A stretch of 64,000 nt of DNA from an uncultured Thermoleophilia bacterium (GCA_963803425.1 CAWDMA010000001.1:501355-565354), one strand, 5' to 3'; positions 17,280 through 54,470 are shown, counted from the first letter of the stretch. Notes: generated by a model from the letters alone, not told the origin. Numbers and translations are program-made.

Positions 17280-17315
17280 CCGCCGCCTCCTCCGCTTCGC
17301 GTCCGGGGGCGGCGG
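17280..17315 (-). repeat. hairpin element copy A (core GGACGCGAAGCGGAG on the minus strand)
   Basis: Minus strand reads CCGCCGCC-CCCGGACGCGAAGCGGAGGA-GGCGGCGG with perfect 8-bp arms. It sits in the 56-nt spacer between sdhB and the sdhE-like gene, 3 nt before the latter's ATG. Confidence 0.85.
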
Positions 17316-17332
17316 GGCTTGCGCCACTCCCG

Positions 17333-18509
17333 TCATCGGTTTCCTACCTCGTCGGGCTCGGGCTCGACGGCCGCCTCGGGCACGTCCTGGTCGGGCTCCT
17401 CGCCCCGGATGTACAGGTTGAGCTCCTCGCGATGGCCCTCGGTGTGCTCGTAGATCCGCTTCACCCGCTTCTGGGAGTCGCCGGGGAGCTTGTGGTGGAC
17501 ACCGGGGATCAGCTTCGGCAGCGACCGCATCTTCCCGGTCCGGATCCCGCGGATCGCGGTCGGGATCGAGCCGATCAGGCCCTTGATCGCCCCCGGGGTC
17601 GGGACCAGCTTGCCCTTGATCCCGGGCGCGTAGGACTCCTGGAACAGCATCGACTCGTCGAGCGTCCCCTTCTTCTCGATGATCTTCGTGAACGCCTCCT
17701 CGTGCCGGCGTCCGTTGTTGGCGTCGTCGATCCCGTGGTCGTGGGTCGCCGCGCGGCGCAGTCGCATGATCTGGTCCATCGGCGCGACGCCCTTCGGGCA
17801 CGCGTCGATGCAGCTGAAGCAGTGGGTGCAGTCGTAGATCCCGTGCGGGTCCTGGGCGAGGTCGTGGAGGCGCTCGGTGTGCTGGCCGTCGCGCGGGTCG
17901 CCGACGAACCGGTACGCCTTCGCAAGCGCGGCGGGGCCGATGAAGTCTGGGTCGGCCTCCATCGAGAGGCAGGAGGAGACGCACGCGCCGCACTGGATGC
18001 ACGCCATCGACTGGGTGATGTCGATCATCGACTCGGGCGGGACGACGTGCTCGCGCTCGGGCTCCTCGCCCTCGGGAAGCAGCCACGGCGTGACGCGGCG
18101 GATCTTCGTCCAGTGGGTCGACTCCATGTCGGTGACGAGGTCCTTGATCACCGGCATGTTCCCCATCGGCTCGACCACAATTGGGCGCGCTGCGTCTCCG
18201 CTTCGCGTCCGGGCGCCGCGCGGTCACCGCCGGACTGCCGTTCCGTCGATTCGCGGCCTCGTGCGCCTCGCCGATCTGGGTCTTGCAGGCGAGCGTCGAC
18301 TGGCCGTTGATCTTCACCCCGCACGACCCGCAGATCGCGGCGCGGCACGAGCAGCGCACGACCAGCGAGCCGTCCTCGCGGTCGCGGGCCTGGAGCAGGC
18401 CGTCGAGCACGCTGAGCGTCGGGTCGAGCTCGACGTCGAACCGCTCCCAGTACGGCCCCTCGCCCGTCTCCGGCTGGTAGCGGCGCACCTTGAGCTCGAA
18501 CTTGGCCAT
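17333..18509 (-). pseudogene. sdhB: succinate dehydrogenase/fumarate reductase iron-sulfur subunit, frame interrupted at hairpin copy B
   Basis: N-terminal part MAKFELKVRRYQPETGEGPYWERF...CRAAICGSCGVKINGQSTLACKTQIGEAHEAA (frame of ORF 16389..18632). C-terminal part IVVEPMGNMPVIKDLVTDM...CIQCGACVSSC...CTHCFSCIDACPKG (ORF 17333..18178). The two frames are offset by +1 across 18179-18250. Confidence 0.85.
18186..18222 (-). repeat. hairpin element copy B, inside sdhB
   Basis: Minus strand reads CGCGCGGCG-CCCGGACGCGAAGCGGAGA-CGCAGCGCG. 37 nt, arms pair at 8 of 9 positions. Confidence 0.85.
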
Positions 18510-18526
18510 CGGATCGGAGACGGACC

Positions 18527-20231
18527 CTAGTAGGTCCGCTCGGCCGGCTCCCACTGGGTCATCGTCACCGGCGGTGTAGCTCGATCTCCGGCTCGGCGTC
18601 CGTTCGGCGACAGGACGATGTGCTTGTGCCACTCGTCGTCGTTTCGCTCCGGGAAGTCGGTGCGGAACTGCGCGCCGCGGCTCTCGGCCCGGTGCAGGGC
18701 CGCGACGCAGGTCGCCTCGGCGTTGTCGATAAGGAAGCCGAGCTCGATCGCGCCGATCACGTCCTGGTTGAAGACGGTGCCGCGGTCGTCGATGTACGCG
18801 GTCTGGGGCTGCTCCGCGAGCTCGCCGGACCGGTGTCCAGCGCGGTCTGGATCCCGTCAGCGTCGCGGAACACCGCCAGGTGGGCGTCCATGGTCTCGCC
18901 GAGCTCGCGCTTCAGGCTCCGAGACGCGCTCGCCCGAGCCCGCGCTCGCGGCCGATGATCGCGTCGATCCGGCGCTGCTCGTCGGCGAGCGCGGTGCGAG
19001 AGACGGGCCGGGACCGCCGCCGGATTCCTTCGCGCGGCTCGGCGGCGTGCTCGCCGGAGCGGCGCCCGAAGATCAGCGTGTCGAGCAGCGAGTTGGCGCC
19101 GAGCCGGTTGCCGCCGTGGACCGAGACGCACGCGCACTCGCCAGCGGCGTATAGCCCGGGGACGTTCGTGCGCGCCCTGGACGTCGGTCCTTGACCCCGC
19201 CCATCGTGTAGTGGTTGCCGGGCTTGATCCGGATCGGCTCGCGTGGTGATGTCGACGCCGGCGAAGTCCCGGCCGACGAGCACGATCTCGCGGAGCGCCT
19301 CGTGGATCCGCTTCCGCGGGACCACCGTGATGTCGAGCGCCACGGTCCCGTCCGGGAAGCCGCGACCCTCGTTGATCTCGGTCTGCTCGGCGCGCGAGAC
19401 CACGTCGCGGGAGGCGAGCTCCATCTTGTTCGGCGCGTACCGCTCCATGAACCGCTCGCCCTTCGCGTTCAGCAGGTGCGCGCCCTCGCCGCGGGCGCCC
19501 TCGGTGATCAGGAAGCCCTTCCCGGCCAGCGTGGTCGGGTGGTACTGGATCATCTCCATGTCCATCAGCTGCGCCCCGGCGCGGTAGGCGAGCGAGATCC
19601 CGTCGCCGGTGCAGATCAGCGCGTTGGTAGTCGGCTGGAACATCTGGCCGTTCCCGCCGGTGGCGAGGATCGCCGACTTCGCGGTGAACAGCTCCAGCGA
19701 GCCGTCGCCGACGTTGCGGGTGATCGCGCCGGCGCAGTCGCCGTCTTCGTCGATCACGAGGCCGGTCGTGAACCACTCCTCGTAGCGGTCGATCAGCTCC
19801 TCGTACTTCATCAGCTGCTCGTACAGCACGTGCATGATCGCCTGGCCGGTGATGTCGGCGACGTAGTAGGTGCGCGCCGCGGACGCTCCGCCGAAGGCCC
19901 GGGTTCCCAGCCGGCCCTCCTCGTTGCGGTGGAACGTCACCCCGAGGTGCTCCAGGTGGAGGATCTCCTGGGGCGCCTCGCGGCACATGATCTCGATCGC
20001 GTCCTGGTCACCGAGGTAGTCGGAGCCCTTCACCGTGTCGAACGCGTGCGACTCCCAGGAGTCCCCGGGGTTGAGCGCCGCGTTGATCCCGCCCTGGGCG
20101 GCGTTCGAGTGGGAGCGGACCGGGTGGACCTTGCTGATGATCCCCACGGACACGCCCTGCTCGGCCGCGGCGAGCGCCGCCCGCTGGCCGGCCAGGCCGG
20201 CTCCTATGACGAGTACGTCGTGCTCGGGCAA
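18527..20231 (-). pseudogene. sdhA: succinate dehydrogenase/fumarate reductase flavoprotein subunit, about nine frame changes in the C-terminal half
   Basis: Intact N-terminal 330 codons ([15 protein letters not shown]...[15 protein letters not shown]...). The rest is split over three frames: [17 protein letters not shown] / TDVQG / [29 protein letters not shown] / SGERVSE / [27 protein letters not shown] / ELAEQPQTAYIDDRGTVFNQDVIGAIELGF...AESRGAQFRTDFPERND / DAEPEIELHRR / PVTMTQWEPAERTY. Confidence 0.9.
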
Positions 20232-20272
20232 CTTGAGGTGATCCTATATACGGAGGGCTGCCGTCGCGGCGC

Positions 20273-21442
20273 CTACGCGCCGTCGCCCGCGGAACCGGAA
20301 ACCGCCGTCCGCAGCGCCCGGCCGACCTGGTTCAGCGTGACGACGCCGCGCAGCCGGCCGCTCGCGTCCACCGCGATCAGCGCCCCCAGCCGGCGCAGGT
20401 CCTCGTTCCCGAGCAGGCTCTCGAGCGGCTCGTCCTCGCGCACGCGGAGGCTTTCGGCCGCCTCCGCGTCGGCGACGTGACCGACCGTCTCGGAGGCTCG
20501 GAGCTGCTCCGGGACGGCGTCGGCGGCGCCGCGGTTGAGCAGCCCGCGGAGGTTGTGGGCGCCGTCCACCACCGGGAACCACGGCCACCGGTAGCGCAGG
20601 AAGTAGTCGTCGAGCGCGTCGGAGACGCTGAGCTTGTCGGGGATCGCGACCGGGTCGGCGTCCATCACGTCGGCGACCGTGACGCCGCTGATCCGGCTGG
20701 CGACGTCGGACTGGACCTGTGCGGCGCGGGCAGACTGGTACAGGATGAACCCGAGGATCCCGAGCCAGATCCCGCCGAGCGGGTCGCCGTCGACCAGCAG
20801 GAACAGGCCGAGCGCGATCAGGATCCAGGCGAACACCTGCCCCAGCGTCGCCGCGAACCTGGTGGCGCTGCTGCGATCACCGGTCACCCGCCATGCGATC
20901 GCGCGGGCGATCCGCCCCCCGTCGAGCGGGTAGGCCGGGACCAGGTTGAAGAGCAGCACGAGCACGTTGATGCTGGTCAGCCACGCGACCACCGCCAGCC
21001 CCGGTGACACCCCGTTTGCGTCCTGGACGAGCGCGGCCTCGCGGAAGTCGGTGGTGCCCGACGCCGCGACCACGATCGCGCCGCCGATGATCACGAGCGC
21101 GAGCGTCACCAGCGGCCCCGCGACCGCGATCCTGAACTCGGTCCCTGGGGAGTCCGGGTCGCGCTGCATCCGGGCGACGCCGCCGAACATCCACAGCGTG
21201 ATGTCCGAGATCCCGATCCCGTTGCGCATGGCAACGAACGCGTGGCCGAGCTCGTGCAGCAGGATCGACCCGAAGAAGAGCAGCGCGCTGACCAGCGCCA
21301 GCGCGTACGGCCCGATCGAGTCGGAGGAGGTATCGAGCAGCGTCCGGTAGTAGCTCGACATCCACAGGATGATCAGGAAGAGGACGAAGAACCACGACAG
21401 GTCGACCGTGATCCTGATTCCGCGGATCCGAAGCAGAGTCAT
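20273..21442 (-). CDS. site-2 protease family (peptidase M50) with tandem CBS domains
   Basis: HELGHAFVAMRNG zinc motif, several TM helices, C-terminal CBS pair. ORF extends to 21499; ATG 21442 (MTLLRIRGIRI) is preferred. Confidence 0.85.
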   Translation of the reverse strand: MTLLRIRGIRITVDLSWFFVLFLIILWMSSYYRTLLDTSSDSIGPYALALVSALLFFGSILLHELGHAFVAMRNGIGISDITLWMFGGVARMQRDPDSPGTEFRIAVAGPLVTLALVIIGGAIVVAASGTTDFREAALVQDANGVSPGLAVVAWLTSINVLVLLFNLVPAYPLDGGRIARAIAWRVTGDRSSATRFAATLGQVFAWILIALGLFLLVDGDPLGGIWLGILGFILYQSARAAQVQSDVASRISGVTVADVMDADPVAIPDKLSVSDALDDYFLRYRWPWFPVVDGAHNLRGLLNRGAADAVPEQLRASETVGHVADAEAAESLRVREDEPLESLLGNEDLRRLGALIAVDASGRLRGVVTLNQVGRALRTAVSGSAGDGA

Positions 21443-21519
21443 GCCGCCGCCGGTAGGCATGTGAGCCATGTTACGGGCGGCGGAACCGGGCGGGATCACT
21501 CGGTAGCTTTCCGAGCCCG

Positions 21520-22731
21520 ATGGCGGGCGCTGTCACACCCGATGCTCGCGGGCTCGGGGGCGAGCTCGACCACGGGCGGCTTCGCGCCCAGGTCGAGGCG
21601 CTCGCGACGATCCACCGGCCGACCGCCTCGGAGGGTGAGCGCGACGCGGCGGAGTGGGTGCGCTCGCGGCTCGCCGAGACCGGGATCGATGCCCGGCTCG
21701 AGCGTGAGGACTCGAACGGCGGCTACTGGTGGCCGCTCGGCCTGACCGCCGCGGCCGCCGGGCTGGCCGGCGTCGCCGCGCTCCGCGGTCGGCGCGCGCT
21801 GGGCGCCGCGCTCGGGGCGGCCGCCTGCGCGGCCGCGGTCGACGACCTGCCGCCGCGCTCCCGGGCGCTGCGCGGCGTGCTCCCGAAGCGGGACTCGTGG
21901 AACGTGGTCGGCCAGCTCGGCCCCGACGACGCCGAGCGCGCCGTGGTCCTGGTCGCGCACCACGACACCGCCCACGCCGGTCTGGTCTTCCACCCCGCAC
22001 TGCCCCGGATCGCCGACAGGCTCGGGATCCTGGAGCGCAACGACACCAGCCCGCCGCTGATGTGGCCGGTGGTCGGCTGCGGCGCGGTCGTCGCGGCGGG
22101 CGCCCTCACCGGAAGCCGCGCCCTGACCCGGATCGGCACGACGCTGAGCGCGGGGGTCGCGGCGGCGATGGTCGACCTCGGCCTCCGCGAGGCGGTCCCC
22201 GGCGCGAACGACAACGCCACCGGGACGGTCGCGATGCTTGTCGTCGCGCGGGCGCTCGCCGCCCGCCCGCCCGAGGGACTCCGGGTGCTCTTCGTGTCCA
22301 CCTCGGAGGAGGCGACCTGCGAGGGGATGCACCGGTTCGCCGCCCGCCACTTGCACGCGCTGCCGCGGGAGAGCACCTTCTTCCTCAACCTCGACACGGT
22401 CGGCTCGCCGCACCTGATCGTGCTCCGCGGCGAGGGGATGTTCGGAGTGAAGGAGTACCCGCCCGCCTCCCTGGAGCTCGCCGACGGGCTCGCCGAGCAG
22501 CTCGGGATCTGGCTGTTCCCGAACCTCCGGCTCCGCAACGCGACCGACGGCGTGTACCCGCTGAACGCCGGCTACCAGTGCGTCTCGATCGCGTCCTGCA
22601 CGAAGCTGAAGCAGCCCGCGAACTACCACTGGCCGAGCGACGTTCCCGAGAACGTCGAGTACGGGACCGTCGCCGATGCGGTCCGGCTCACCGAGGCGAT
22701 CGTCCGCCGGCTCGACCAGCGCTGGGTGTAG
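21520..22731 (+). CDS. M28 family metallopeptidase (membrane-associated)
   Basis: VVLVAHHDTAHAG, GANDNATGTVAML and STSEEATCEGM metal-ligand blocks typical of M28, with internal hydrophobic segments. Confidence 0.75.
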   Translation: MAGAVTPDARGLGGELDHGRLRAQVEALATIHRPTASEGERDAAEWVRSRLAETGIDARLEREDSNGGYWWPLGLTAAAAGLAGVAALRGRRALGAALGAAACAAAVDDLPPRSRALRGVLPKRDSWNVVGQLGPDDAERAVVLVAHHDTAHAGLVFHPALPRIADRLGILERNDTSPPLMWPVVGCGAVVAAGALTGSRALTRIGTTLSAGVAAAMVDLGLREAVPGANDNATGTVAMLVVARALAARPPEGLRVLFVSTSEEATCEGMHRFAARHLHALPRESTFFLNLDTVGSPHLIVLRGEGMFGVKEYPPASLELADGLAEQLGIWLFPNLRLRNATDGVYPLNAGYQCVSIASCTKLKQPANYHWPSDVPENVEYGTVADAVRLTEAIVRRLDQRWV

Positions 22732-22738
22732 CCGGGGC

Positions 22739-23170
22739 ATGCGCCGCGAGCTGCCCGGCGGGTACGAGCTCGACGACGATCCGAGGCGCGTCGACGTGGA
22801 CGCCGTGCACGACTTCCTCGCCAACCGCTCCTACTGGGCCGCCGGGCGTCCCCGCGAGCTGGTGGAGCGGCTTGTCCGCGAGGCGACGCGAGTGGTCGGC
22901 GCGTACCGGGGAGGCGAGCAGGTCGGGTTCGCCCGCGTCGTGTCCGACGGCGTGGTGTTCGCCTACCTTGCGGACGTCTACGTGATTTCCGAGCATCGCC
23001 GCCGGGGGGTGGGGCGGGAGATCCTCGTCGAGGCGGTCGAGAACGGCCCGCACAGCGAGTTGCGATGGTTGCTCGGCACCCAGGACGCGCACGAACTCTA
23101 CGCGCGACTCGGCTTTGGACCACCGTCCCGACTGATGATGGAGCGCCCACCTCCGGCCGAACGCGGCTGA
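22739..23170 (+). CDS. GNAT family N-acetyltransferase
   Basis: ORF 22676.. trimmed to ATG 22739. YLADVYVISEHRRRGVGREIL is the acetyl-CoA binding motif A (R-x-x-G-x-G). Confidence 0.8.
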   Translation: MRRELPGGYELDDDPRRVDVDAVHDFLANRSYWAAGRPRELVERLVREATRVVGAYRGGEQVGFARVVSDGVVFAYLADVYVISEHRRRGVGREILVEAVENGPHSELRWLLGTQDAHELYARLGFGPPSRLMMERPPPAERG

Positions 23171-25183: not shown

Positions 25184-25206
25184 GGACGGCCGTCCAGCGC
25201 CGGCCG

Positions 25207-26964: not shown

Positions 26965-27046
26965 CGCGTCAAGTGATGCAGGCTTGGCACGTCTTGTCAG
27001 TACCGATCTGGTCCCTACCTCGATCCGCCGGCGGGGTGCGGGGCGT

Positions 27047-28300: not shown

Positions 28301-28390
28301 CCACCACCGATTCGCCTTGGCGTCTCCACGTACGATGGCGCGACGGTAGGCGCCGGCGCGCGGGCAGTCAGTACCGACTTGGTGCCGATC

Positions 28391-32139
<3,749 letters not shown>

Positions 32140-32149
32140 CGCGGTCCGT

Positions 32150-33458: not shown

Positions 33459-33674
33459 ATGAGCGCGGCGCGCAAGAAACAGCGGCCTCCGAGCTGCGAG
33501 GAGTGCTTCTTTCGGTGCCACGGCCTGTGCGCCCTCGACCTCGACCAGCCCTGCTCGACCTTCCGGCCCAATCTTCCCGAGGGGCTCGTCCCGCCCCGGC
33601 AGCCGGCGCTGCTGGTCCGCGATCCGGAGGCCGCCGCGGCGAACCTCGACGACGGCCTAACCGCCAGCGCCTGA
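33459..33674 (+). CDS. small Cys-rich hypothetical protein (C-x2-C-x3-C-x3-C)
   Basis: ORF 33402.. trimmed to ATG 33459. MSAARKKQRPPSCEECFFRCHGLCALDLDQPCSTFRP... Coding status is only moderately supported. Confidence 0.4.
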   Translation: MSAARKKQRPPSCEECFFRCHGLCALDLDQPCSTFRPNLPEGLVPPRQPALLVRDPEAAAANLDDGLTASA

Positions 33675-33777
33675 ACAACTCCCGCGGCGTGCTCCGCGCG
33701 CCGCCGTGTTGCGGGTCCCGTTGCAGCGTCGCAGTGGCCGGCGTGAGCAGCGTCCCGCGAGGGTTACGCTTGCCGCG

Positions 33778-37534: not shown

Positions 37535-37990
37535 ATGGCGTCAAGCAGCCGCGCGCAGGAATCCGCGAAGAGGGTGGGCGAGGCCACGTCCGCGCTGCGG
37601 TCGAACCCCTACGTGCAGCGTCTGATCGAGGACGAGGACCTCCGCGACAACATCCGCGAGGCGTTCGAGGCGGCGCGCGACGCGTACGCGCGAATCGCCA
37701 ACGGCAAGGGCCCTGCGAAGGCGCTGATGGACGACAAGAAGGTGCAGCGCGACCTGCGCCGGGCGGCGGAGTCGATGCGCGAGGCATCCGAGCAGCTCCG
37801 TGGCAAGCGCAAGCGCAAGAGCCGGGTCGGCCGGCTGATTCTGATCGCGCTGCTCGGAGCCGGCCTGGCGCTGCTGCTCAGCGAGGACCTGCGCAAGGCG
37901 GTGCTCGACCGTCTGTTCGGAGCCGAGGAGGAGTTCGAGTACACCTCGACCACCTCGCCGGCGCCGGAGACCGCCTCCACGCAGAGCTAG
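37535..37990 (+). CDS. hypothetical membrane-anchored protein (helical N-domain, one TM)
   Basis: 151 aa. Charged helical region, KRKRKSRVGRLILIALLGAGLALLL TM segment, short tail. Confidence 0.5.
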   Translation: MASSSRAQESAKRVGEATSALRSNPYVQRLIEDEDLRDNIREAFEAARDAYARIANGKGPAKALMDDKKVQRDLRRAAESMREASEQLRGKRKRKSRVGRLILIALLGAGLALLLSEDLRKAVLDRLFGAEEEFEYTSTTSPAPETASTQS

Positions 37991-38012: not shown

Positions 38013-38050
38013 CCGCTCGCGCGCGGACGCGAAGCGGAGCACGCGAGCGG
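38013..38050 (+). repeat. hairpin element copy C
   Basis: CCGCTCGCG-CGCGGACGCGAAGCGGAGCA-CGCGAGCGG with perfect 9-bp arms. It ends 1 nt before ATG 38052. Confidence 0.85.
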
Positions 38051-38102
38051 AATGATGCCGGGTCGCTGCCAGGTCGTGCGGCAGCCGTACACTGCGCGGC
38101 AC

Positions 38103-38708
38103 ATGGAAGCGGCCACCAAGCAGCGCGAGCTCTCCAGCGACAAGGCGCAGCGGATCATCGAGGCGATGCGCGCCAGCGTCGCCGCGCGCGGGATCGCCGG
38201 ATCGACGTTCGAGCACGTCTCGCGCGAGGCGGGCGTCAGCCGGGGCCTCTTGCACTACTACTTCGGGACCAAGGAGCGGCTCCTGGTGGAGGTGGTGCGC
38301 CGCGACTCCGAGGTGCGGGTGGCGCGCCTTGACGAGTCGCTGGCGCGCGCGCAGACGGTCGACGACGTCGTCGACGTGCTGGTCTCGAACCTGCTCGACC
38401 TGATCGAGAACGAGCCGGGCTTCTTCGACCTGATCTTCGAGGTGTACACCGCCGGCCGCCGCACGCCCGAGATCCAGCGCGAGACCGCAGAGCTGTTCAA
38501 GCGTAGCCGCGATCACGTCGCCGAGGTGCTCGACGCCAAGAACGAGGAGGGGGTGCTGTCGCTGCGGTTCGGAGCCCAGGCGACGGTCGCCTACCTGTTC
38601 GCGATCGCGGACGGGACCGCACTGCAGGCGCTCACCGATCGCGGCCGCGAGTTCGACGAGGTGATCGAGACCGGCACCGCCGCGGCGCGCTTCCTGCTTA
38701 CCTCGTAA
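38103..38708 (+). CDS. TetR/AcrR family transcriptional regulator
   Basis: KAQRIIEAMRASVAARGIAGSTFEHVSREAGVSRGLLHYYFGTKERLL is a TetR HTH. The ORF opens at ATG 38052; ATG 38103 gives a normal N-terminal length. Confidence 0.85.
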   Translation: MEAATKQRELSSDKAQRIIEAMRASVAARGIAGSTFEHVSREAGVSRGLLHYYFGTKERLLVEVVRRDSEVRVARLDESLARAQTVDDVVDVLVSNLLDLIENEPGFFDLIFEVYTAGRRTPEIQRETAELFKRSRDHVAEVLDAKNEEGVLSLRFGAQATVAYLFAIADGTALQALTDRGREFDEVIETGTAAARFLLTS

Positions 38709-38745: not shown

Positions 38746-38781
38746 CCGCCAAAAGCGGACGCGAAGCGGAGCATTTGGCGG
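38746..38781 (+). repeat. hairpin element copy D
   Basis: CCGCCAAA-AGCGGACGCGAAGCGGAGCA-TTTGGCGG with perfect 8-bp arms (9 if C38745/G38782 are counted). Confidence 0.85.
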
Positions 38782-38864: not shown

Positions 38865-39137
38865 ATGGAAGCGCTTCTTCCCATCGCACAGGCATCCGCC
38901 GACACAGCAGGGCTCGACGCCGCGAAGGCGCTCGCGCTCGGACTCGGCACCGGGTTCGGGGCGATCGGCCCCGGGATCGGCGTCGGCTACATCTTCGGCA
39001 AGACGATCGAGTCGGTCACCCGCCAGCCGGAGATGCGCGGCGAGATCCAGAGCATCATGTGGCTCGGGTTCGCGCTCACCGAGGCGATCGTCTTCTACGC
39101 CCTGATGATGTCGCTGGTGGCGTTCTTCATCGCCTAG
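38865..39137 (+). CDS. atpE: F-type ATP synthase subunit c-like protein, not in an atp operon
   Basis: 90 aa. Helix 1 carries GAIGPGIGVGYIFG (GxGxGxG packing motif). Polar loop RQPE. Helix 2 WLGFALTEAIVFYALMMSL carries the conserved carboxylate. Confidence 0.85.
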   Translation: MEALLPIAQASADTAGLDAAKALALGLGTGFGAIGPGIGVGYIFGKTIESVTRQPEMRGEIQSIMWLGFALTEAIVFYALMMSLVAFFIA

Positions 39138-39139
39138 GT

Positions 39140-39174
39140 CCGCAAGATGCTCCGCTTTGCGTCCGGTTCGGCGG
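39140..39174 (-). repeat. hairpin element copy E (degenerate, inverted relative to C and D)
   Basis: Plus strand reads CCGCAAGA-TGCTCCGCTTTGCGTCCGG-TTCGGCGG. One core substitution and weak arms. It starts 3 nt after the atpE-like stop. Confidence 0.65.
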
Positions 39175-46690: not shown

Positions 46691-48271
46691 ATGGAGACCC
46701 GCCCACCCACACCGATCCAGCTGCTGATCGCCGTCGCCTTCGCGATCTCCTGCTTCGGGCTGCTGCTGTTCCTGTGGCTCTCGTTTGGCGGGCCGACCCC
46801 GCTGAAGCCGCAGAGCTACCAGTTCAGGGTGCCGTTCGACGAGGCGACCCAGCTTCCGGCCGAGGCCGACGTGCGGATCTCCGGGGTATCGGTCGGCAAG
46901 GTGAAGTCGGTCGACCTGAACGACAAGGGACGGGCCGAGGCGACGGTCGAGATGGATTCGAAGTACGCGCCGATCGCCTCCAACACGCGCGCGATCCTGC
47001 GCCAGAAGACGCTGCTCGGCGAGACCTACGTTGAGCTGACGCCGGGCTCCCCTGACGCCAGCCCGGTGCCGAAGAACCCGCTTCCCGAGGGCGGCAAGCT
47101 CCGCGCCGCCCAGGTCTCCGACGCGGTCCAGCTGGACGAGGTGTTCCGGGCGTTCGACGAGCCGACCCGCGAGGCGTTCCAGGTATGGCAGCAGTCGGCC
47201 GCGCTCGCCCTGCACCATCGCGGCGAGGACCTGTCGGCGGCGTTCGGGAACCTGGGCCCGTTCGCCGACGAGCTCGACCGGGTGCTGCGCGTGCTCGACA
47301 CCCAGCGGATCCAGACCCGCAACTTCGTCCGCGACACCGGCGAGGTGTTCGACGCGTTCAGCGAGCGCCAGGGCCAGCTTCGGGGTCTGATCAGCAACTC
47401 CGAGCGGGTGTTCTCGACCACCGCCGCCCGCAACCAGAGCCTCCGGGAGCTGTTCCAGGCGCTCCCCACCTACCTGGACGAGCAGCGCCTCACCCTGGCC
47501 CGGCTGGAGCAGTTCTCGGGCGACACGAACCCGCTGATCACCCAGCTTCGCCCCGCTGCGCGCGAGCTCAGCCCGACCCTGGTCGACCTGGGCCGGCTGG
47601 CGCCGCAGCTGCGCGACTTCTTCATCGGGTTCCGGCGGGCCGCGAACCGCGCCAAGCCGGGGTTCCCCGCGCTGCGCGAGGTGCTCGACGATCAGCTGCC
47701 GCCGTTCCTGACCGATCTCGACCCGCTGCTTCGCAACCTCACCCCGATCGTGCAGGTGGTGAGGAAGTACCAGCAGGACGTCACCGGGTTCCTCGGCAAC
47801 GTCGCGGCGGCGACGCAGGCCCGGCGTTCCGCGCCCGAGGAGCCCGCGAACGGGGCGATCGTCCACTACCTGCGGACCGGCGCGCCGGTGGGTCCGGAGT
47901 CGGTCGCCGGGTATCCCAACCGGCTCCGCGTGGACCGCTCCAACCCGTACATCCAGCCCGGCGGGTACAACAGCATCGCCAGCGGCCTGGCGAGCTTCGA
48001 GACGCGTCAATGCTCCACCGGGATCACCGCCACGTTCCCGGCCAAGGCGACGGCGATCGCGGATCCCGCGTTCGCCGACTGGGCCCGCTACCCGGTCGGG
48101 TCGACCGAGCTGGGCGACTTCTACGATCTGCTGCGCGCGTTCACGTTCAGGGACGAGACCAGCTCGAACGACATCCCGGCCCCGCCGTGCCGCAAGCAGG
48201 ACCCCTACGAGTCGATCGGCGGCTCGTCCTCCGAGTCCACGGACTACCTGCACGTGTTCGAGCTTCCGTGA
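46691..48271 (+). CDS. MCE family protein 6 of 6
   Basis: Starts directly after the previous stop. TM helix, then YQFRVPFDEATQLPAEADVRISGVSVGKVKSVDL. Confidence 0.85.
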   Translation: METRPPTPIQLLIAVAFAISCFGLLLFLWLSFGGPTPLKPQSYQFRVPFDEATQLPAEADVRISGVSVGKVKSVDLNDKGRAEATVEMDSKYAPIASNTRAILRQKTLLGETYVELTPGSPDASPVPKNPLPEGGKLRAAQVSDAVQLDEVFRAFDEPTREAFQVWQQSAALALHHRGEDLSAAFGNLGPFADELDRVLRVLDTQRIQTRNFVRDTGEVFDAFSERQGQLRGLISNSERVFSTTAARNQSLRELFQALPTYLDEQRLTLARLEQFSGDTNPLITQLRPAARELSPTLVDLGRLAPQLRDFFIGFRRAANRAKPGFPALREVLDDQLPPFLTDLDPLLRNLTPIVQVVRKYQQDVTGFLGNVAAATQARRSAPEEPANGAIVHYLRTGAPVGPESVAGYPNRLRVDRSNPYIQPGGYNSIASGLASFETRQCSTGITATFPAKATAIADPAFADWARYPVGSTELGDFYDLLRAFTFRDETSSNDIPAPPCRKQDPYESIGGSSSESTDYLHVFELP

Positions 48272-48425
48272 GCGAAACTCCCTGCTGGTGTTGCAAAACA
48301 ATGTAGGCTTGCTCGCAACGACCGCTACTAAGCGGTGGCGGGAGTGTTGTTTAGAGGAGGAATAGGGAGCGTGGGATGCGGCGCTGGTGCCGCGATCGCG
48401 CGGTCCCGTCAACGAGGAGGAGTAA

Positions 48426-49337
48426 ATGCGAAAGCGTCGCATTGGCTATGTAGGCGCCTTGGGGCTCGCGCTCGCCGTGGCGATCCCCGCGAGCGCGATG
48501 GCCGCTGGCACGCAGAAGGTCGAGGCCGGGTTCCAGCCGACGACGACGAAGGCGGATGCCCAGCTGGACTTCCCGGTGCCGCCGTTCCCGATTCCGCCCA
48601 GCTCGGCGGACCTGGGCGGCAAGGACAGCAAGCACGGAACGCAGTACACGCGGCTGTTCCTGAAGGACTTCACCGCCCCGGTTCCCGAGGCGGGCGTGTT
48701 CGACATCTATGCTCCCGAGGAGCTCACGTACACGACCAAGGGTCTCGCCCAGTGTGATCCGGCGACGATCCGCGGCCAGGACGCGGCTACGGCCAAGAGC
48801 CTGTGTGAGGACGCGCTGATCGGCGCCGGCAAGTCCGACGCGTTCCTCGGCCAGGGCGTGCCGGGTGCAACCGGCCCCGTCCTGACCGGCGGGGTGGCGC
48901 TGTTCAACGGGACGCCGCAGAACGGCCACCCGACGGTGCTGTTCCACGCGACGGCCGGGACGCCGGTGACCCTGATCAGCGAGATGATTCCGTTCAACCA
49001 GGACGGGTTCGGAACCCTGTTCCACACCCTCGTCGCGCAGAGCGCCGGCGGAGCAGTCCCGGACGGGATCCCGATCACGGACACCGCGTTCACGATCAGC
49101 AAGGACTACACGGACGCGAAGCTCAAGAAGCAGTCCAAGAAGCTGAAGAAGAAGGCGAAGAAGGCGTCTGGCAAGAAGGCCAAGAAGCTGAAGAAGAAGT
49201 CGAAGAAGAAGAAGCAGCAGTCGAAGAAGAGCTGGGTCGTCGGGAAGTGCACCGACGGCGAGCTCACCACGAAGATCAACGTCTCGTACGTGAGCGGCCC
49301 GGCCCAGACCGACAGCGTCACGCAGGCGTGCACCTAG
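48426..49337 (+). CDS. secreted hypothetical protein with internal poly-Lys tract, copy 1
   Basis: 303 aa. Signal peptide MRKRRIGYVGALGLALAVAIPASAMA; K-rich tract KLKKQSKKLKKKAKKASGKKAKKLKKKSKKKKQQSKKS; ends ...SVTQACT. Confidence 0.8.
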   Translation: MRKRRIGYVGALGLALAVAIPASAMAAGTQKVEAGFQPTTTKADAQLDFPVPPFPIPPSSADLGGKDSKHGTQYTRLFLKDFTAPVPEAGVFDIYAPEELTYTTKGLAQCDPATIRGQDAATAKSLCEDALIGAGKSDAFLGQGVPGATGPVLTGGVALFNGTPQNGHPTVLFHATAGTPVTLISEMIPFNQDGFGTLFHTLVAQSAGGAVPDGIPITDTAFTISKDYTDAKLKKQSKKLKKKAKKASGKKAKKLKKKSKKKKQQSKKSWVVGKCTDGELTTKINVSYVSGPAQTDSVTQACT

Positions 49338-49372
49338 CCCGCTGAGCGAGAGGGCTCTCGAGCCCGATGCTG

Positions 49373-49408
49373 GAGAGGGGCGGCCTTCGGGCCGCCCCTC
49401 TCATTTGG
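49373..49408 (+). terminator. rho-independent terminator-like hairpin after copy 1
   Basis: GAGAGGGGCGGCC-TTCG-GGCCGCCCCTCTC (13-bp stem) followed by ATTTGG. Confidence 0.65.
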
Positions 49409-49530
49409 TCGTGCCGCTACAAACCGGCCGGCCGCGTGTTGCTACAAGTGGATGTGCAGGCGGGCGCTGCCCGGCGCCGCGTTTTGCGTGATCAAGCGGG
49501 GGAGCGCGCGACAAGGAGGAGGAGGAGGAA

Positions 49531-50499
49531 ATGAGAAAGCGTCGCATTGGAAAGCGTCGCATTGGCTATGTAGGCGCCTTGGGGCTCGCGCTCGCCGTGG
49601 CGATCCCCGCGAGCGCGATGGCCGCTGGCACGCAGAAGGTCGAGGCCGGGTTCCAGCCGACGACGACGAAGGCGGATGCCCAGCTGGACTTCCCGGTGCC
49701 GCCGTTCCCGATTCCGCCCAGCTCGGCGGACCTGGGCGGCAAGGACAGCAAGCACGGAACGCAGTACACGCGGCTGTTCCTGAAGGACTTCACCGCCCCG
49801 GTTCCCGAGGCGGGCGTGTTCGACATCTATGCTCCCGAGGAGCTCACGTACACGACCAAGGGTCTCGCCCAGTGTGATCCGGCGACGATCCGCGGCCAGG
49901 ACGCGGCTACGGCCAAGAGCCTGTGTAAGGACGCGCTGATCGGCGCCGGCAAGTCGGGGGCGTTCCTCGGCCAGGGCGTGCCGGGTGCAACCGGCCCCGT
50001 GCTGTACGGCGGGGTGGCGCTGTTCAACGGGACGCGGCAGAACGGCCACCCGACGGTGCTGTTCCACTCGACGGCCGGGACGCCGGTGACCCTGGTCAGC
50101 GAGATGATTCCGTTCAACCAGGACGGGTTCGGAACCCTGTTCCACACCCTCGTCGCGCAGAGCGCCGGCGGAGCAGTCCCGGACGGGATCCCGATCACGG
50201 ACACCGCGTTCACGATCAGCAAGGACTACAAGGACGCGAAGCTCAAGAAGAAGTCCAAGAAGCTGAAGAAGAAGTCGAAGAAGTACAAGAAGAAGGCGAA
50301 GAAGGCGTCCGGCAAGAAGGCCAAGAAGCTGAAGAAGAAGTCCAAGAAGCTGAAGAAGAAGTCGAAGAAGAAGAAGCAGCAGTCGAAGAAGAGCTGGGTC
50401 GTCGGGAAGTGCACCGACGGCGAGCTCACCACGAAGATCAACGTCTCGTACGTGAGCGGCCCGGCCCAGACCGACAGCGTCACGCAGGCGTGCACCTAG
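49531..50499 (+). CDS. secreted hypothetical protein with internal poly-Lys tract, copy 2
   Basis: 322 aa. Same as copy 1 except for a 15-nt N-terminal duplication (KRRIG x2), 7 substitutions and a longer Lys tract. Confidence 0.8.
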   Translation: MRKRRIGKRRIGYVGALGLALAVAIPASAMAAGTQKVEAGFQPTTTKADAQLDFPVPPFPIPPSSADLGGKDSKHGTQYTRLFLKDFTAPVPEAGVFDIYAPEELTYTTKGLAQCDPATIRGQDAATAKSLCKDALIGAGKSGAFLGQGVPGATGPVLYGGVALFNGTRQNGHPTVLFHSTAGTPVTLVSEMIPFNQDGFGTLFHTLVAQSAGGAVPDGIPITDTAFTISKDYKDAKLKKKSKKLKKKSKKYKKKAKKASGKKAKKLKKKSKKLKKKSKKKKQQSKKSWVVGKCTDGELTTKINVSYVSGPAQTDSVTQACT

Positions 50500-50527
50500 C
50501 CCGCTGAGCGAGACGCAGGCATGAGCG

Positions 50528-50557
50528 GGGGGCGGCCTTCGGGCCGCCCCCTTCTCT
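50528..50557 (+). terminator. rho-independent terminator-like hairpin after copy 2
   Basis: GGGGGCGGCC-TTCG-GGCCGCCCCC followed by TTCTCT. Confidence 0.6.
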
Positions 50558-50571
50558 GCGATCTTCGAACG

Positions 50572-51681
50572 ATGCGATTCGGTCCGGCAGCAGCCGCCGC
50601 GGCGGCGACCGCGCTGGTCACCCTCCCGGCTGCGGCGGTGGCCGCCCCGAGCCTCGGCTACAACGAGGACCTGCACGCGCTGCAGCTCCAGGGCAGGCTG
50701 GGGTCCGTCCTGGACGACATCGAGGCGGAGGGTGCGGAGACCGTGCGCCTCAACGTGTACGCGTGCCGCGCCACGGCCCCCGGCGGATGGGAGCCGTACG
50801 ACGCCGTCGTCTCCGCAATCCGCGACCGCGGCCTGCACGCGGTCGTGATGGTCGGCGGCGTCCCCGGCGGCTCGTGTGACCGGGCGTGGGAGCCGCCGCG
50901 GACCGGGCGCGAGTGGAACGCGTGGTACGGATTCGTCGCGGAGACGGTGCGGCGCACATGGGCTGTCGCCGACGCGTACGAGATCTGGAACGAGCCCAAC
51001 CTGCCCGCGTTCTGGCCGGCCGAGGTGGACCCGGCCGCCTACGCAACGGTGGTGGCGTACGCCGAGTACGCGGTCACCGACGCGCAGGCCCGTGTGTGCG
51101 CGGAGCATGGCGAGTGCGACCTCGACCCCCGGACCACGGTGGCGGGCCTCGGCCGTCCGGCGCTGAGTTGCCGGAAGCGCGGGCAGCAGGCCCCGGTGTG
51201 CGCGACCGGCTACATGCGGGAGACGCTCCGCTACCTCAGCCCGTTCTCGGTGGACGCGGTCGGCATCCACCTGTACCCGGAGCGCAGCTACGGGGCGGAC
51301 AACGAGGCGGCCGAGGACGAGGCGGTCGCGCAGTACGACGATCTCGACGCGGTCGTCGACGCCGCCGGGTTCGGCGACGCCGCCCGGCTCGTCACCGAGC
51401 TCGGGTTCAGGACGCGAACCGACCCCGACCGGTGCGGCGGCCTCACCGAGGCGGGCCAGGCGGCGCGGCTGACGGGTACGTGGCGGCGGCTCTCCGGGAA
51501 GGCACGGCTCGAGACCGTCCAGGTCCACCGCTTCGCCGACAGCCGCCACGAGGTATGCGCGGCCGGCCCCTACCAGGCATACGGCGTGATGGGCCCGGAG
51601 TTCGGCCCCGACGGGTTCGAGCCGAAGCAGTCCTACTGCGCGCTGGCGGCCGAGCTCGATCGGGATCCGCCGAAGTGCTGA
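50572..51681 (+). CDS. secreted clan GH-A glycoside hydrolase (GH5-like)
   Basis: ORF 50521.. trimmed to ATG 50572 (MRFGPAAAAAAATALVTLPAAAVA signal), because 50521-50557 is the terminator hairpin. YEIWNEPN acid/base motif; later TELGF is nucleophile-like. Confidence 0.5.
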   Translation: MRFGPAAAAAAATALVTLPAAAVAAPSLGYNEDLHALQLQGRLGSVLDDIEAEGAETVRLNVYACRATAPGGWEPYDAVVSAIRDRGLHAVVMVGGVPGGSCDRAWEPPRTGREWNAWYGFVAETVRRTWAVADAYEIWNEPNLPAFWPAEVDPAAYATVVAYAEYAVTDAQARVCAEHGECDLDPRTTVAGLGRPALSCRKRGQQAPVCATGYMRETLRYLSPFSVDAVGIHLYPERSYGADNEAAEDEAVAQYDDLDAVVDAAGFGDAARLVTELGFRTRTDPDRCGGLTEAGQAARLTGTWRRLSGKARLETVQVHRFADSRHEVCAAGPYQAYGVMGPEFGPDGFEPKQSYCALAAELDRDPPKC

Positions 51682-51691
51682 GCGACCGCGC

Positions 51692-53002
51692 CTAGCGCGG
51701 GAAGATCTTGCCCATCCGGAGCAGCTGCCGGATCGAGCCGCGCGGTCGGATCCGGCCCCGTAGGATCGCCTTCCGGGGGTCGCCGCGATGCGTGGAGACC
51801 GCGATCCAGTCGCGCCAGGTGGTCTCGAACGTGAGATCGGGGTCCGCTGCCTCGCCCGGCTCGGCTCGGCTGGAGCCGTTGTCGATCCGCAGGTGCCACG
51901 GCTCCGCATCGGCGAACCGCCATTGGATCGTCATCGGGTCGCCGTCGACCGCGCTGTGGTCCACGGAGCGCTCCACCGTGTCGAAGTACAGCCGCTGGAT
52001 CTCGGGCGAGCACTGGGGGCTGTCGTTCGGCTCTCCGACGACGCCGGCCTGCATCAGCTTCACGATCCCCTCCACGCGCTGCTCGGGCGACAGCGCGAAG
52101 TCGACGGGGAACACGCCCGGTGGCATCTCCTCGATCGGGTAGCCCGCGGCGCGCCACTTGGTCTCCACCGAGCGGAACCCCCACGCGTAGATCTCCTCCA
52201 GCGTGAACCCGTACTCCTCCGTGTAGCGCCGGTCCCAGTTGGGCGGGATGTACACCGCGAGCGTGTAGGGCGCAACCTCGCGAAGCAGCTCGCCCACGGC
52301 CTGCTTGCACTCCTCGGACTCGGCGAAACACTCCGACAGCACCTTGACCCCGAACCCGATGTGTCGCTGCTCGTCGCGGGACACGTTCTTCATCCCCTCG
52401 GCGAACCCGGGCATCGTCCCCGACTTGACGAAGAAGTCCTCGATGAAGTGCTGCCCCGGCTGAGCCAGCTCGGCCTCCACCACCATGTGGTAGAGCGCGA
52501 TCGCCTGCGCGAACTTGGGCAGCGAGCGATCGCGTCGGAGCTCGTCCGCCATCCGATCGAGCCGGTCGAACACCTTCCGGAAGCCCCAGGTGAGCTGCGG
52601 CTCGGTGTAGGCGAGGCCGGACGCGACGGTGCCCCCGGCGCCGATCACCTCGGAGAAGAAGCGGGAGAAGAAGACCGAGTGGCGGGCCTCGTCCACCTGC
52701 TGGGTGGCGAGGAAGTACTTCTGCTCCGCCTGCGGCGCCGCGTCGATGTACGGGGAGAGGTTGTCGGCAACCGAGTCCTCGCCGTAGAAGAACATCGAGT
52801 ACGTCCACAGCGCGCTGGCGCGCTGGATCTCGGACAGCTCCCGCCACCCCGTGCGGTCCTGGGCGAAGTCGATCCCGGTGGCGCTCCAGTTCCCCTCCTC
52901 CCAGCGGCGGTACAGGTCCGAGTAGCTGATCGAGGCGATCGCGCTCGAATCACCCGCGCCGTTCGCGCCTGCCTGCCTGCGCGACGCCTGCTCGGTCGCC
53001 AT
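51692..53002 (-). CDS. ferritin-like diiron protein (RNR R2 / R2lox-like) fused to a C-terminal SCP2 sterol-carrier-like domain
   Basis: Metal ligand pattern E...DEARH...E...DEQRH. The C-terminal ~100 aa (DGDPMTIQWRFADAEPWHLRIDNG...TFETTWRDWIAVSTHRGDPRKAILRGRIRPRG) are SCP2-like. Confidence 0.65.
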   Translation of the reverse strand: MATEQASRRQAGANGAGDSSAIASISYSDLYRRWEEGNWSATGIDFAQDRTGWRELSEIQRASALWTYSMFFYGEDSVADNLSPYIDAAPQAEQKYFLATQQVDEARHSVFFSRFFSEVIGAGGTVASGLAYTEPQLTWGFRKVFDRLDRMADELRRDRSLPKFAQAIALYHMVVEAELAQPGQHFIEDFFVKSGTMPGFAEGMKNVSRDEQRHIGFGVKVLSECFAESEECKQAVGELLREVAPYTLAVYIPPNWDRRYTEEYGFTLEEIYAWGFRSVETKWRAAGYPIEEMPPGVFPVDFALSPEQRVEGIVKLMQAGVVGEPNDSPQCSPEIQRLYFDTVERSVDHSAVDGDPMTIQWRFADAEPWHLRIDNGSSRAEPGEAADPDLTFETTWRDWIAVSTHRGDPRKAILRGRIRPRGSIRQLLRMGKIFPR

Positions 53003-53054
53003 GCATGCAGCTTAGATCAAGGCTGGCTGTCCGGCCAGTCCAATCTGACCGAGC

Positions 53055-54470
53055 TCACCGCGCCAGCTTCGGGCTGGTCCAGGGCCGCTCCAGGCGGGCG
53101 GCCAGATCGTCGGCCAGGCCCTCGATCGGGACGCGGACCTGTTCCAGCGAGTCGCGGTCGCGGAGCGTCACCGTGCCCGTGTCCTCGGTCTCGCCGTCCA
53201 CGGTGATCCCCCACGGCGTGCCGATCTCGTCCTGGCGGCGATAGCGCTTCCCGATCGAGCCGCCCTCGTCGTACTCGGCCGGGATCCGGCGGCGGAGGCT
53301 CTCGTGGATCTCCCGCGCCCGCTCCGGCATCCCCGCCTTGGAGACGAGCGGCAGCACGGCGACCTTCACCGGCGCCAGCTTCGGGTGCAGCCGCAGCACC
53401 GTCCGCTTCCGGCCCTCGACCTCCTCGACGTCGTAGGCGTCGACAATGAACGCGAGCAGGGAGCGGTCGACGCCGGCTGCGGGCTCGACGACGTGGGGGA
53501 CGTACGCCTCGCCGCGCTCCTGGTCGAAGTACTCGAGCTTCTCGCCCGACGCCTTCGCGTGCGCGGTCAGGTCGAAGTCGCCGCGGTTCGCGATCCCCTC
53601 CAGCTCCGACCACCCGATCGGGAACAGGTACTCGATGTCCGACGTCGCCGACGAGTAGTGGGACAGCTCGTCGGCTCCGTGCTCGCGGAGGCGGAGCTGG
53701 TCGGGACGGATACCGAGCTCCGTGTACCACCGCATCCGGTCGTCCATCCACCGCCGGTGCCACTCCTCCGCCTCGTCCGGCGGTGTGAAGAACTCCATCT
53801 CCATCTGCTCGAACTCGCGCGTCCGGAACACGAAGTTCCCCGGGGTGATCTCGTTCCGGAACGACTTCCCGATCTGGGCGATCCCGAACGGTGGCTTCTT
53901 GCGCGCGAACTGGAGCACGTTCTTGAAGTTGATGAAGATCCCCTGGGCGGTCTCGGGGCGGAGGTAGGCGACCGAGGCGTCGTCGGCGACCGGCCCGATG
54001 TGGGTCTCGAACATCAGGTTGAATCGCCGCGGCTCGCTGAGCTCGCCCCCACAATTCGGACATCTCAAGACACTGCCTGCGGCGTCCTCCGCTTCGCGTC
54101 CGGGCGCGGCAGGGTCCCGGGCGGACTCCTCACGCAGGTGGTCCTCCCGCCACCGCCGCTTGCACTCGCCGAGGCACTGGACGAGCGGGTCGGTGAACCC
54201 CTCGAGATGGCCGGACGCCTCCCACACCCGGGGGTGCTGGATGATCGCCGAGTCGATCGCGACGATGTCGTCCCGGTCCTGCAGCATCGCCCGCCACCAC
54301 TCCGCCTTCACGTTGTTCTTGAGCAGGACCCCGTAGTGGCCGTAGTCGTAGGTGTTCGCGAACCCGCCGTAGATCTCCGAGGCGCCGAAGATGAAGCCGC
54401 GCCGCTTGCACAGCGCGACTATCTCGTCGAGCGACGCCTCGCCCTGGGCGTCTGTACGGGCTGCCTCCAT
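53055..54470 (-). CDS. glyQS: glycine--tRNA ligase (dimeric GlyQS type) carrying hairpin copy F in frame
   Basis: RGFIFGASEIYGGFANTYDYGHYG..., FNLMFETHIGPV, YLRPETAQGIFINF, GIAQIGKSFRNEITP, class II motifs, C-terminal anticodon-binding domain. Confidence 0.95.
   Translation of the reverse strand: MEAARTDAQGEASLDEIVALCKRRGFIFGASEIYGGFANTYDYGHYGVLLKNNVKAEWWRAMLQDRDDIVAIDSAIIQHPRVWEASGHLEGFTDPLVQCLGECKRRWREDHLREESARDPAAPGREAEDAAGSVLRCPNCGGELSEPRRFNLMFETHIGPVADDASVAYLRPETAQGIFINFKNVLQFARKKPPFGIAQIGKSFRNEITPGNFVFRTREFEQMEMEFFTPPDEAEEWHRRWMDDRMRWYTELGIRPDQLRLREHGADELSHYSSATSDIEYLFPIGWSELEGIANRGDFDLTAHAKASGEKLEYFDQERGEAYVPHVVEPAAGVDRSLLAFIVDAYDVEEVEGRKRTVLRLHPKLAPVKVAVLPLVSKAGMPERAREIHESLRRRIPAEYDEGGSIGKRYRRQDEIGTPWGITVDGETEDTGTVTLRDRDSLEQVRVPIEGLADDLAARLERPWTSPKLAR
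54076..54113 (-). repeat. hairpin element copy F, inside glyQS
   Basis: Minus strand reads CCTGCCGCG-CCCGGACGCGAAGCGGAGGA-CGCCGCAGG with arms pairing at 8 of 9 positions. Translated as PAAPGREAEDAAG. Confidence 0.85.

Follow-up and report, generated by a model that had tools for sequence, protein, structure and literature searches.

A 64 kb stretch from the genome of an uncultured Thermoleophilia bacterium (GCA_963803425.1 CAWDMA010000001.1:501355-565354; about 70% G+C), referred to here as the window, carries six copies of a short DNA hairpin whose apex is almost invariant and whose stem arms vary between copies while pairing within each. As found here, the hairpin family is limited to the class Thermoleophilia (mainly Solirubrobacterales) among the soil Actinobacteria, and glycyl-tRNA synthetase (GlyRS) homologues place the host lineage in the Solirubrobacterales. 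Its members are probably non-autonomous, largely selfish mobile palindromic DNA repeats of Thermoleophilia, resembling REPs (repetitive extragenic palindromes) and the Rickettsia palindromic elements (RPEs).

Results and Discussion

A hairpin family of Thermoleophilia

The 15-mer GGACGCGAAGCGGAG occurs in the window as five exact copies and one copy with a single mismatch, and each occurrence forms the apex of a hairpin (Table 1, copies A to F). When up to two mismatches were allowed six matches were found where 1.2 were expected, and none of 100 dinucleotide-preserving shuffles reached six. The six hairpins reported at these positions in the initial annotation of the window are thus a real family. 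An exact scan for the 15-mer in one genome per GTDB species gave at least 120 loci, and at least 78 of the matches listed were Thermoleophilia-type loci, mostly from metagenome-assembled genomes (MAGs) of Solirubrobacterales; this set comprises Solirubrobacterales, Thermoleophilia and Conexibacteraceae MAGs together with unclassified 'Actinomycetes' MAGs that carry the same element. In the Thermoleophilia-type loci (0.66 Mb), model R1 detected more than 85 full hairpins scoring 30-67 bits. Run on the window, the covariance model returned exactly the six known copies (67 to 22 bits) and a seventh at 33677-33711(-), so that a search for further copies, as first suggested, was productive both in other Thermoleophilia-type loci and in the window itself. 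As controls, 42 loci with the 15-mer alone were examined, of which 41 belong to other phyla and one to a Thermoleophilaceae MAG (L094); none has the hairpin, and scores there did not exceed 25 bits. Copy density is about 1 per 10-50 kb; it is about 1 per 10 kb in the window, and there is no copy in the 18 kb of locus L123.

The family does not appear to have been described before, as the initial annotation had supposed. Rfam gave nothing at the copies at the gathering threshold and nothing at E <= 10 around copies C, D and E. When the literature was searched for the 15-mer and a 12-nt part of it, on either strand, only the 12-mer was recovered, in two unrelated virology papers, and a keyword search turned up no work on repeats in Thermoleophilia. 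To our knowledge no repeat family has been described for the Solirubrobacterales.

Anatomy and covariation of the hairpin

The unit is a hairpin of 37-38 nt on one DNA strand, with a 9-bp self-complementary stem of free sequence. The consensus order is a 9-bp arm, an unpaired N, S, C, GGACGCGAAGCGGAG, S', A and the 9-bp partner arm. Below the apex, S pairs with S' and an invariant C with the core's last G, and the A forms a conserved irregularity, either a 1x1 mismatch or a bulge. The core itself consists of a GAA triloop closed by a 3-bp CGC/GCG stem, below which GGA faces GA, an arrangement in which a bulged G and tandem G·A/A·G pairs are possible. The flanking modules are 5' (G/A)ACC and 3' G(C)AGTGAT or AGTCATCTA.

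Within the window, nine of nine arm positions pair in copies A, C and D and eight of nine in copy F; copy B also pairs at eight of nine and lacks one nucleotide 3' of the core, and copy E is degenerate. Across the family the arms vary and covary as first proposed, but they are not unrelated between copies, since they cluster at the dominant pair CCGCCGCC/GGCGGCGG and in several smaller subfamilies. In a hand alignment of 41 copies, a set pre-selected for paired arms, 94% of stem cells were paired against 74% after shuffling, and cells with double changes numbered 96 against 23. A model-based alignment of 89 distinct copies, which were fitted to the model, gave 93% against 70% and 229 against 66 double-change cells, with slid controls at 30-56%. 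The comparison of the arms with shuffled controls (93-94% against 70-74%) therefore upholds the view of a dispersed family with an invariant apex and covarying stems. The covariation noted at the pair next to the core likewise extends family-wide, with C-G in 60 copies, G-C in 24, G-U in 1 and other combinations in 3.

Folding was carried out both as DNA and as RNA with ViennaRNA energies, which give the GCGAAGC mini-hairpin no special treatment. For copies A, C and D the minimum free energy structure is the proposed fold (z = -2.8 to -4.4), and that of copy F agrees with it as RNA; taken singly, copies B, E and F fold no better than shuffled sequences. The heptamer d(GCGAAGC) is reportedly known from Hirao and co-workers as an unusually stable mini-hairpin, a biophysical motif and not a genetic element. 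The hairpin apex holds this exact heptamer flanked by purines, with tandem sheared G·A pairs possible, and by analogy it should be unusually stable as single-stranded DNA.

The wobble pairs of the stems are not symmetrical between strands. Read on the apex strand, G·T exceeds A·C by 20 to 5 (p = 0.004), and in copies lying antisense to a gene by 6 to 0. Because the asymmetry is retained in antisense copies, pairing on the apex strand matters whatever the direction of transcription, which points to a hairpin in single-stranded DNA or in a transcript whose synthesis does not depend on the host gene.

Three forms of the element were distinguished. Type T1 has the 5' flank (G/A)ACC and the 3' tail G(C)AGTGAT. 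Type T2 lacks the unpaired N, has arms ending in CCG...GA / TC...CGG and carries the tail AGTCATCTA. A composite type contains an extra AT-rich hairpin ATCTCATGCAGATGAGAT and was seen twice on one contig (L124) and once in another genome (L081), the copies being identical. Tandem arrays with periods of 68, 82 and 116 nt were also observed (L086 6876-6989, L090 1001-1200, L043 4897-5058, L014 1563-1688 and L064 4620-4762); these combine the hairpin with a second conserved module (e.g. TGCGAGCGGCGCCGATATGGCGCATTGCC) in composite forms like those of bacterial interspersed mosaic elements (BIMEs) and variable number tandem repeats. A putative second family with a conserved loop (CATGGCT.CAC) was dropped as it had one match only.

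Position relative to genes and reading frame

About 40% of the copies classified (about 27 of 70) lie inside open reading frames (ORFs), and the host genes include those for GlyRS, succinate dehydrogenase subunit B (SdhB), Lon protease, where the copy immediately precedes the Walker A motif, and ribosomal protein S5 (RpsE), where it lies at the C-terminus. As first reported, two of the window copies are within conserved genes. Copy B, in sense orientation, falls in the interdomain linker of SdhB between the 2Fe-2S domain (Fer2_3, 18237-18509) and the 4Fe-4S domain (Fer4, 17333-18178; both Pfam). Copy F is translated as DPAAPGREAEDAAG in a loop of GlyRS. In L029 (5141-5842) two inverted copies, the sole close inverted pair, flank rpsE within the spc ribosomal-protein operon; one encodes the C-terminal tail of S5, with its stop codon overlapping the start of rpmD, and the other is antisense between rplR and rpsE.

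All six reading frames of the hairpin are open, so that any frame bias must be due to the peptides that are tolerated or to a preferred insertion phase. The bias is strong in both orientations. Sense coding copies are distributed over the three frames as 15:2:1 (p about 4e-5), encoding PxxPGREAEExxG in 15 cases, PRTRSGG in two and PDAKRRR in copy B only, and antisense coding copies as 10:0:0 (p about 4e-5), all encoding SSASRPG. The two persisting frames encode small, acidic or flexible peptides.

The other window copies lie between or next to genes. Copy A, in sense orientation, separates the stop codon of sdhB (17333) from a CCG/HdrB-like subunit gene starting with the ATG at 17276; it ends 3 nt upstream of this ATG, with GGAGGAGG 9 nt upstream. 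Copy C, also sense, begins 23 nt past the stop of an ORF at 37574-37990 and lies about 52 nt upstream of the true start (~38103) of a TetR gene. Copy D, again sense, lies between the TetR stop (38708) and an ATP-synthase-c-like gene (38865-39137), and the 3' tail of copy E comes within 2 nt of the TAG stop (39135-39137) of that gene, on the opposite strand. The seventh copy has intact arms and flanks and has lost its apex: CGC-GGAG-CA is left, 11 nt are gone between two GGA repeats, and its tail AGTTGTTCA adjoins the stop of an ORF at 33459-33674(+).

Several readings of these positions in the initial annotation have to be changed. The ATG noted at 38052 is not the TetR start, since homologues begin about 17 codons further on, near 38103, and a 7-codon ORF downstream of copy D found no support. 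That 5 of 6 window copies are in sense orientation is due to sampling, as about 28 sense and 25 antisense copies were counted across the family (p = 0.78). A role of the 3' side as Shine-Dalgarno sequence ahead of a start codon may apply to some intergenic copies, such as A, and about 10 intergenic copies beyond the window end 2-8 nt upstream of a start codon; it is inapplicable to antisense or intragenic copies. Where the 3' side of a copy faces a converging gene, 16 of 26 copies are within 10 nt of its stop codon, which is typical of T2 and of copy E. The T2 tail was considered as a supplier of the stop codon and ruled out for copy E; the TAG is native there, because L129 carries it without the element. 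The T run that an intrinsic terminator would have follows none of the copies, and copies occur within ORFs and in the spc and sdh operons; their position inside the spc and other operons means that they are not terminators.

Presence, absence and decay at orthologous sites

The initial annotation looked to filled and empty orthologous sites for the limits of the insertion. Both kinds of site were seen, but no clean insertion boundary can be defined from them. In three comparisons filled alleles exceed empty ones by 14 codons. The window has a copy in sdhB where L028 has none (net +43 nt), and L042 has one in lon that the window lacks, the difference being exactly +14 codons (+42 nt) in a 5-residue variable linker. 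In glyQS most homologues are without the element, among them the nearest one, P0001 (90% identical), and the filled alleles are longer by 14 codons, or by 16-17 in two other lineages. L125 has a different family member, with arms CCGCGAAA, in this GlyRS loop, clearly a separate insertion event. Repeated independent insertions in this loop, suggested by a neighbour-joining tree, were withdrawn for the main type in view of a shared RLDDL haplotype and an 82-nt block, which are described below.

Intergenic copies also come and go. L129, whose TetR is 93% identical (protein), is without copies C, D and E, and a 100-nt block is missing at its D site; L131 is without copy C. A degenerate copy in the glyQS 5' untranslated region (5'UTR) of L128 is missing from L127. 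Decay is seen in copy E, in the apex-deleted copy at 33677 and in the GlyRS copy of L124, which has 2 core changes. In L130 (2850-2990) the arms of copy C are identical and a 73-nt foreign palindrome (stems GCTCGCTCGC/GCGAGCGAGC) stands between the 5' arm and the apex; in GlyRS P0019 and P0020 a 13-residue insert is nested in the apex of a hairpin copy. The apex seems to attract other insertions. Six further GlyRS sequences (P0012, P0045, P0056, P0062, P0064 and P0068) have longer inserts of the form ...ARASEAGD...RSGEAERA... in the loop that holds copy F; these would encode GCGAAGC-type apices, and related hairpin families may exist.

Two ways in which target sequence might leave a trace were tried and rejected. 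Duplication of a TA or stop-codon target was suggestive at D, with TAA on either side of the 100-nt block, and at E, and is absent in the coding cases and at C. The arms were also considered as an inverted duplication of the target flank, and neither arm is present in the empty sdhB site of L028.

A probable mobile palindromic repeat

The explanation we favour as the probable one is that the hairpins are REP/RPE-like mobile repeats that do not encode their own means of transfer. On one strand, a trans-acting enzyme would recognise the apex together with a paired stem; the constancy of the apex and the freedom of the stem, which needs only to pair, would follow from this. The enzyme could be a single-strand transposase of the HUH/RAYT kind, although this is a guess. 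Copies do appear at new sites, essential genes among them, and only two of the six reading frames persist in coding regions. Some copies may since have been co-opted, A for example to bind ribosomes and T2 and copy E to form 3'-end hairpins.

Several observations weigh against this explanation. Most loci were ascertained through an exact match to the core, so the apparent invariance of the apex is inflated. No Y1/RAYT-like match was found by tblastn in about 1.1 Mb of Thermoleophilia sequence or in the window with IS608, IS200 and RAYT probes. Clustering of neighbouring ORFs gave no recurrent transposase-like ORF near the copies, only ABC, SDR, acyl-CoA-dehydrogenase and similar paralogues. 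No consistent target-site duplication or clean boundary was seen at sdhB, Lon, glyQS, the glyQS 5'UTR or D, a weak test as divergence blurs the boundaries. In two comparisons of 98%-identical sequences (glyQS and the glyQS 5'UTR) the element arrives together with a replaced flank block, and this looks like allele exchange by recombination and not like fresh insertion. In addition, hairpin A is identical in the orthologous L028 copy, where its flanks are 85% identical, and compensatory changes have occurred in place in L018/L074 and L019/L062 and at pair 3 of the GlyRS copies (T-A, G-C and C-G at synonymous sites). Such conserved or compensated orthologous copies hint at selection on the hairpin after insertion; their conservation may reflect in-place selection, conversion between copies or re-insertion.

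These last observations also speak for an RNA element of the host, namely an mRNA hairpin whose apex (tandem G·A, kink-turn-like) is the binding site of a protein, or one that modulates translation starts through GGAGGA, or serves in transcript protection or processing. We regard such a role for the family as a whole as unlikely. The sense orientation of five of the six window copies agrees with it, as do the end of copy A 3 nt before an ATG, the similar position of about 10 other intergenic copies (2-8 nt before a start), the very stable RNA folds (z down to -4.4), the full conservation of hairpin A in L028 and the compensatory changes at orthologous sites. It is opposed by the family-wide orientation of 28:25, by the ten antisense copies inside ORFs, by the wobble asymmetry, which tracks the apex strand also where copies are antisense (G·T 6, A·C 0), and by copies that are absent from the closest relatives, decaying or interrupted. 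Relaxing the Rfam search to E <= 10 gave no match either, and the canonical 3-nt kink-turn bulge is absent. Tandem GA/AG pairs are possible as in a kink-turn, but covariation fixes S:S' and C:G right below a single bulged G, and half of the copies are antisense to transcription.

The block replacements raise a second alternative, in which the family spreads mainly by homologous recombination or molecular drive and not by transposition, much like an uptake-signal or gene-conversion motif, with its core kept by biased transfer or conversion. The filled glyQS allele of L127 and the empty one of L128 share 98% identity outside a single block (L127 728-809), where L127 has 82 nt in place of 40 nt. 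This block contains the element and linked changes, from REDDL to RLDDL as well as synonymous differences, and reads as a short recombination tract between diverged alleles. The RLDDL motif is linked to every filled glyQS allele across different backgrounds; together with the 82-nt block this means that the filled allele seems to move between backgrounds by recombination. The L127/L128 difference in the 5'UTR is likewise block-like, and the lack of target-site duplications, terminal inverted repeats or a transposase among the findings fits as well. Uptake sequences show orientation-independence and frame bias in ORFs, features that the hairpins share with them. As the main cause of the spread, however, recombination is quite improbable. 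GlyRS, SdhB, Lon, RpsE and many other genes and intergenic sites that are unrelated to one another carry the same element, so that non-homologous insertion is needed for it to reach a new site. Moreover, the density of about 1 per 10-50 kb is far under that of uptake sequences, and each event adds an entire 42-nt hairpin and not a point-mutated motif.

That the family is an artefact of chance or composition in a 70% GC genome, or the outcome of selection on the encoded peptide PGREAEE, has only a negligible probability: chance does produce the exact 15-mer in GC-rich genomes that are unrelated (the 42 control loci) and many copies are translated, but no shuffle in 100 reaches six copies, the control loci never have arms, complementarity at nine positions is expected by chance with a probability of about 1.5e-5, the same DNA is present in intergenic and antisense copies, and the explanation is effectively refuted by the shuffles, the control loci and the pairing statistics.

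Relation to known repeats

The initial annotation described the hairpins as the opposite of REP-type repeats. This is overstated, as REP families of E. coli, Pseudomonas and Stenotrophomonas also show complementary stem changes and intragenic copies (PMC3733652). Like REP/REPIN-RAYT systems, the family consists of short (here 37-38 nt), GC-rich, imperfect, non-coding palindromes in tens to hundreds of dispersed copies, some of them intragenic, in composite or tandem arrays, or targets for other insertions, and here the constraints on the hairpin are tied to one strand. Unlike REPs, it has no GTAG or CGTC at the foot of the stem on either strand; its flanks are (G/A)ACC and G(C)AGT, and CGTC is found near the hairpin only in a weak module about 15 nt upstream. 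The invariant part is the apex and not the stem, the copies are mostly singlets instead of inverted doublets, and about 40% are intragenic whereas REPs are predominantly extragenic. The host phylum also differs, and no RAYT was found in the Thermoleophilia sequence available.

Rickettsia palindromic elements lie in-frame in functional, even essential genes, with a preferred frame and a tolerated surface peptide; cases of the RPE type are cited as background in PMC3733652. The hairpins resemble them in their in-frame copies in GlyRS, SdhB, Lon and RpsE and in their biased frame distributions (15:2:1 and 10:0:0). The two differ in that RPEs are about 100-150 bp long, occur in Rickettsia and have no sequence relation to the 38-nt Solirubrobacterales hairpin, which adds only 14 codons and has a conserved apex of 15-19 nt. 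Mycobacterial interspersed repetitive units (MIRUs) are also found in Actinobacteria between operon genes, with some copies overlapping or abutting stops and starts (here TGATG after T1 copies), but they are tandem units of 46-100 bp that lack this hairpin and any sequence similarity to it, whereas the copies here are mostly single. Miniature inverted-repeat transposable elements differ in that the arms here vary between copies, with no conserved terminal inverted repeats and no consistent flanking direct repeat, the boundaries being blurred by divergence.

An invariant loop on a free stem is the classic layout of HUH nuclease substrates. IS200/IS605-type elements likewise use single-strand-specific hairpins, without target-site duplication or terminal inverted repeats, which the 20 G·T against 5 A·C on the apex strand calls to mind; this is analogy only, as no transposase, cleavage site or left and right ends were identified here.

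Stem covariation and intragenic copies are thus known from REPs and an in-frame life in essential genes from RPEs, so the element is of an already known kind; what is lineage-specific here is the invariant apex, the free stem and the codon-neutral increment. A bolder version of the mobile-repeat explanation, to which we give little credence, is that the apex (bulged G, tandem G·A, GCGAAGC) is the single-stranded DNA ligand of a lineage-specific enzyme new to small repeats and that the family has been shaped (38 nt, 14 codons, six open frames of which two are tolerated) for the coding sequence of essential genes. It would then be a new class of 'codon-neutral' mobile hairpins, some copies of which have been co-opted as RNA or DNA signals of the host.

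Features of the window

Coordinates are collected in Table 1. Window genes were predicted with a codon log-odds caller (start codons approximate) and annotated with Pfam.

Table 1. Positions of the hairpin copies, their 15-mer cores and two host genes in the window.
Feature	Coordinates	Strand	Details
15-mer, exact matches	17290-17304(-), 18196-18210(-), 38025-38039(+), 38757-38771(+), 54087-54101(-)		window motif scan
15-mer, one mismatch (G->A)	39150-39164	-	copy E
Copy A (T1)	17280..17315	-	67.2 bits; 9-bp arms CCGCCGCC(C)/GGCGGCGG(G), apex exact
Copy B	18186..18222	-	37.3 bits; one arm mismatch, 1 nt short 3' of core
Copy C (T1)	38013..38050	+	61.6 bits; arms CCGCTCGCG/CGCGAGCGG
Copy D (T1)	38746..38781	+	56.3 bits; AT-containing arms CCGCCAAA(A)/(T)TTTGGCGG
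Copy E (T2-like, decaying)	39140..39174	-	21.9 bits; apex G->A, arms degenerate
Copy F	54076..54113	-	62.5 bits; in-frame in glyQS, sense
Seventh copy, apex deleted	33677..33711	-	17 bits with apex skipped; arms ACGGCGGCG/CGCCGCGGG retained
sdhB, host of copy B	17333..18509	-	two frames in current assembly; frame change at copy B
glyQS, host of copy F	53055..54470	-	homologue comparison and Pfam

Comparison with orthologues revealed scattered single-base indels in sdhA (~18900-18960), sdhB (18180-18240) and ask/asd fragments (13100-15000). As several essential genes are affected, the assembly appears indel-prone in the manner of long-read MAGs, and the frame break at copy B is therefore probably an artefact and not biological.

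Three other features of the window were recorded. A hairpin at 21439-21488(-) has the commonest arms of the family, CCGCCGCC/GGCGGCGG, around an unrelated 22-nt loop, GTAACATGGCTCACATGCCTAC; it ends 1 nt before the ATG of an M50 peptidase gene, and L028 lacks it at the orthologous position. Either a copy with a replaced apex or a member of another hairpin family could be present here. Just upstream of the TetR start (window 38103 region; L129, L130 and L131) and downstream of copy C, a palindrome GGCTAGCC / GGCCGGTTGGCC followed by TACACTG is conserved in all orthologues and is probably the operator/promoter. Finally, a full-length large (Alu-domain) bacterial signal recognition particle (SRP) RNA scoring 173 bits is encoded at 3711-3978(+) of this Solirubrobacterales (Actinomycetota) genome; the SRP RNA of most Actinobacteria is, as far as is known, of the small 4.5S type.

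Significance

The Solirubrobacterales are abundant and mostly uncultured soil bacteria, and the hairpin family marks a lineage-specific process that remodels intergenic regions and the loops of essential proteins (GlyRS, SdhB, Lon and ribosomal protein S5) among very close relatives. It accounts for differences in the length of the host proteins, perhaps including some 'signature indels', and it offers a compact marker for strain typing and for assembly errors such as those in the window. The invariant apex of 15-19 nt on a free stem is a defined substrate for tracing the enzyme responsible. If that enzyme is new, or if the apex proves to be protein-binding, the family would extend what is known of how small palindromes spread.

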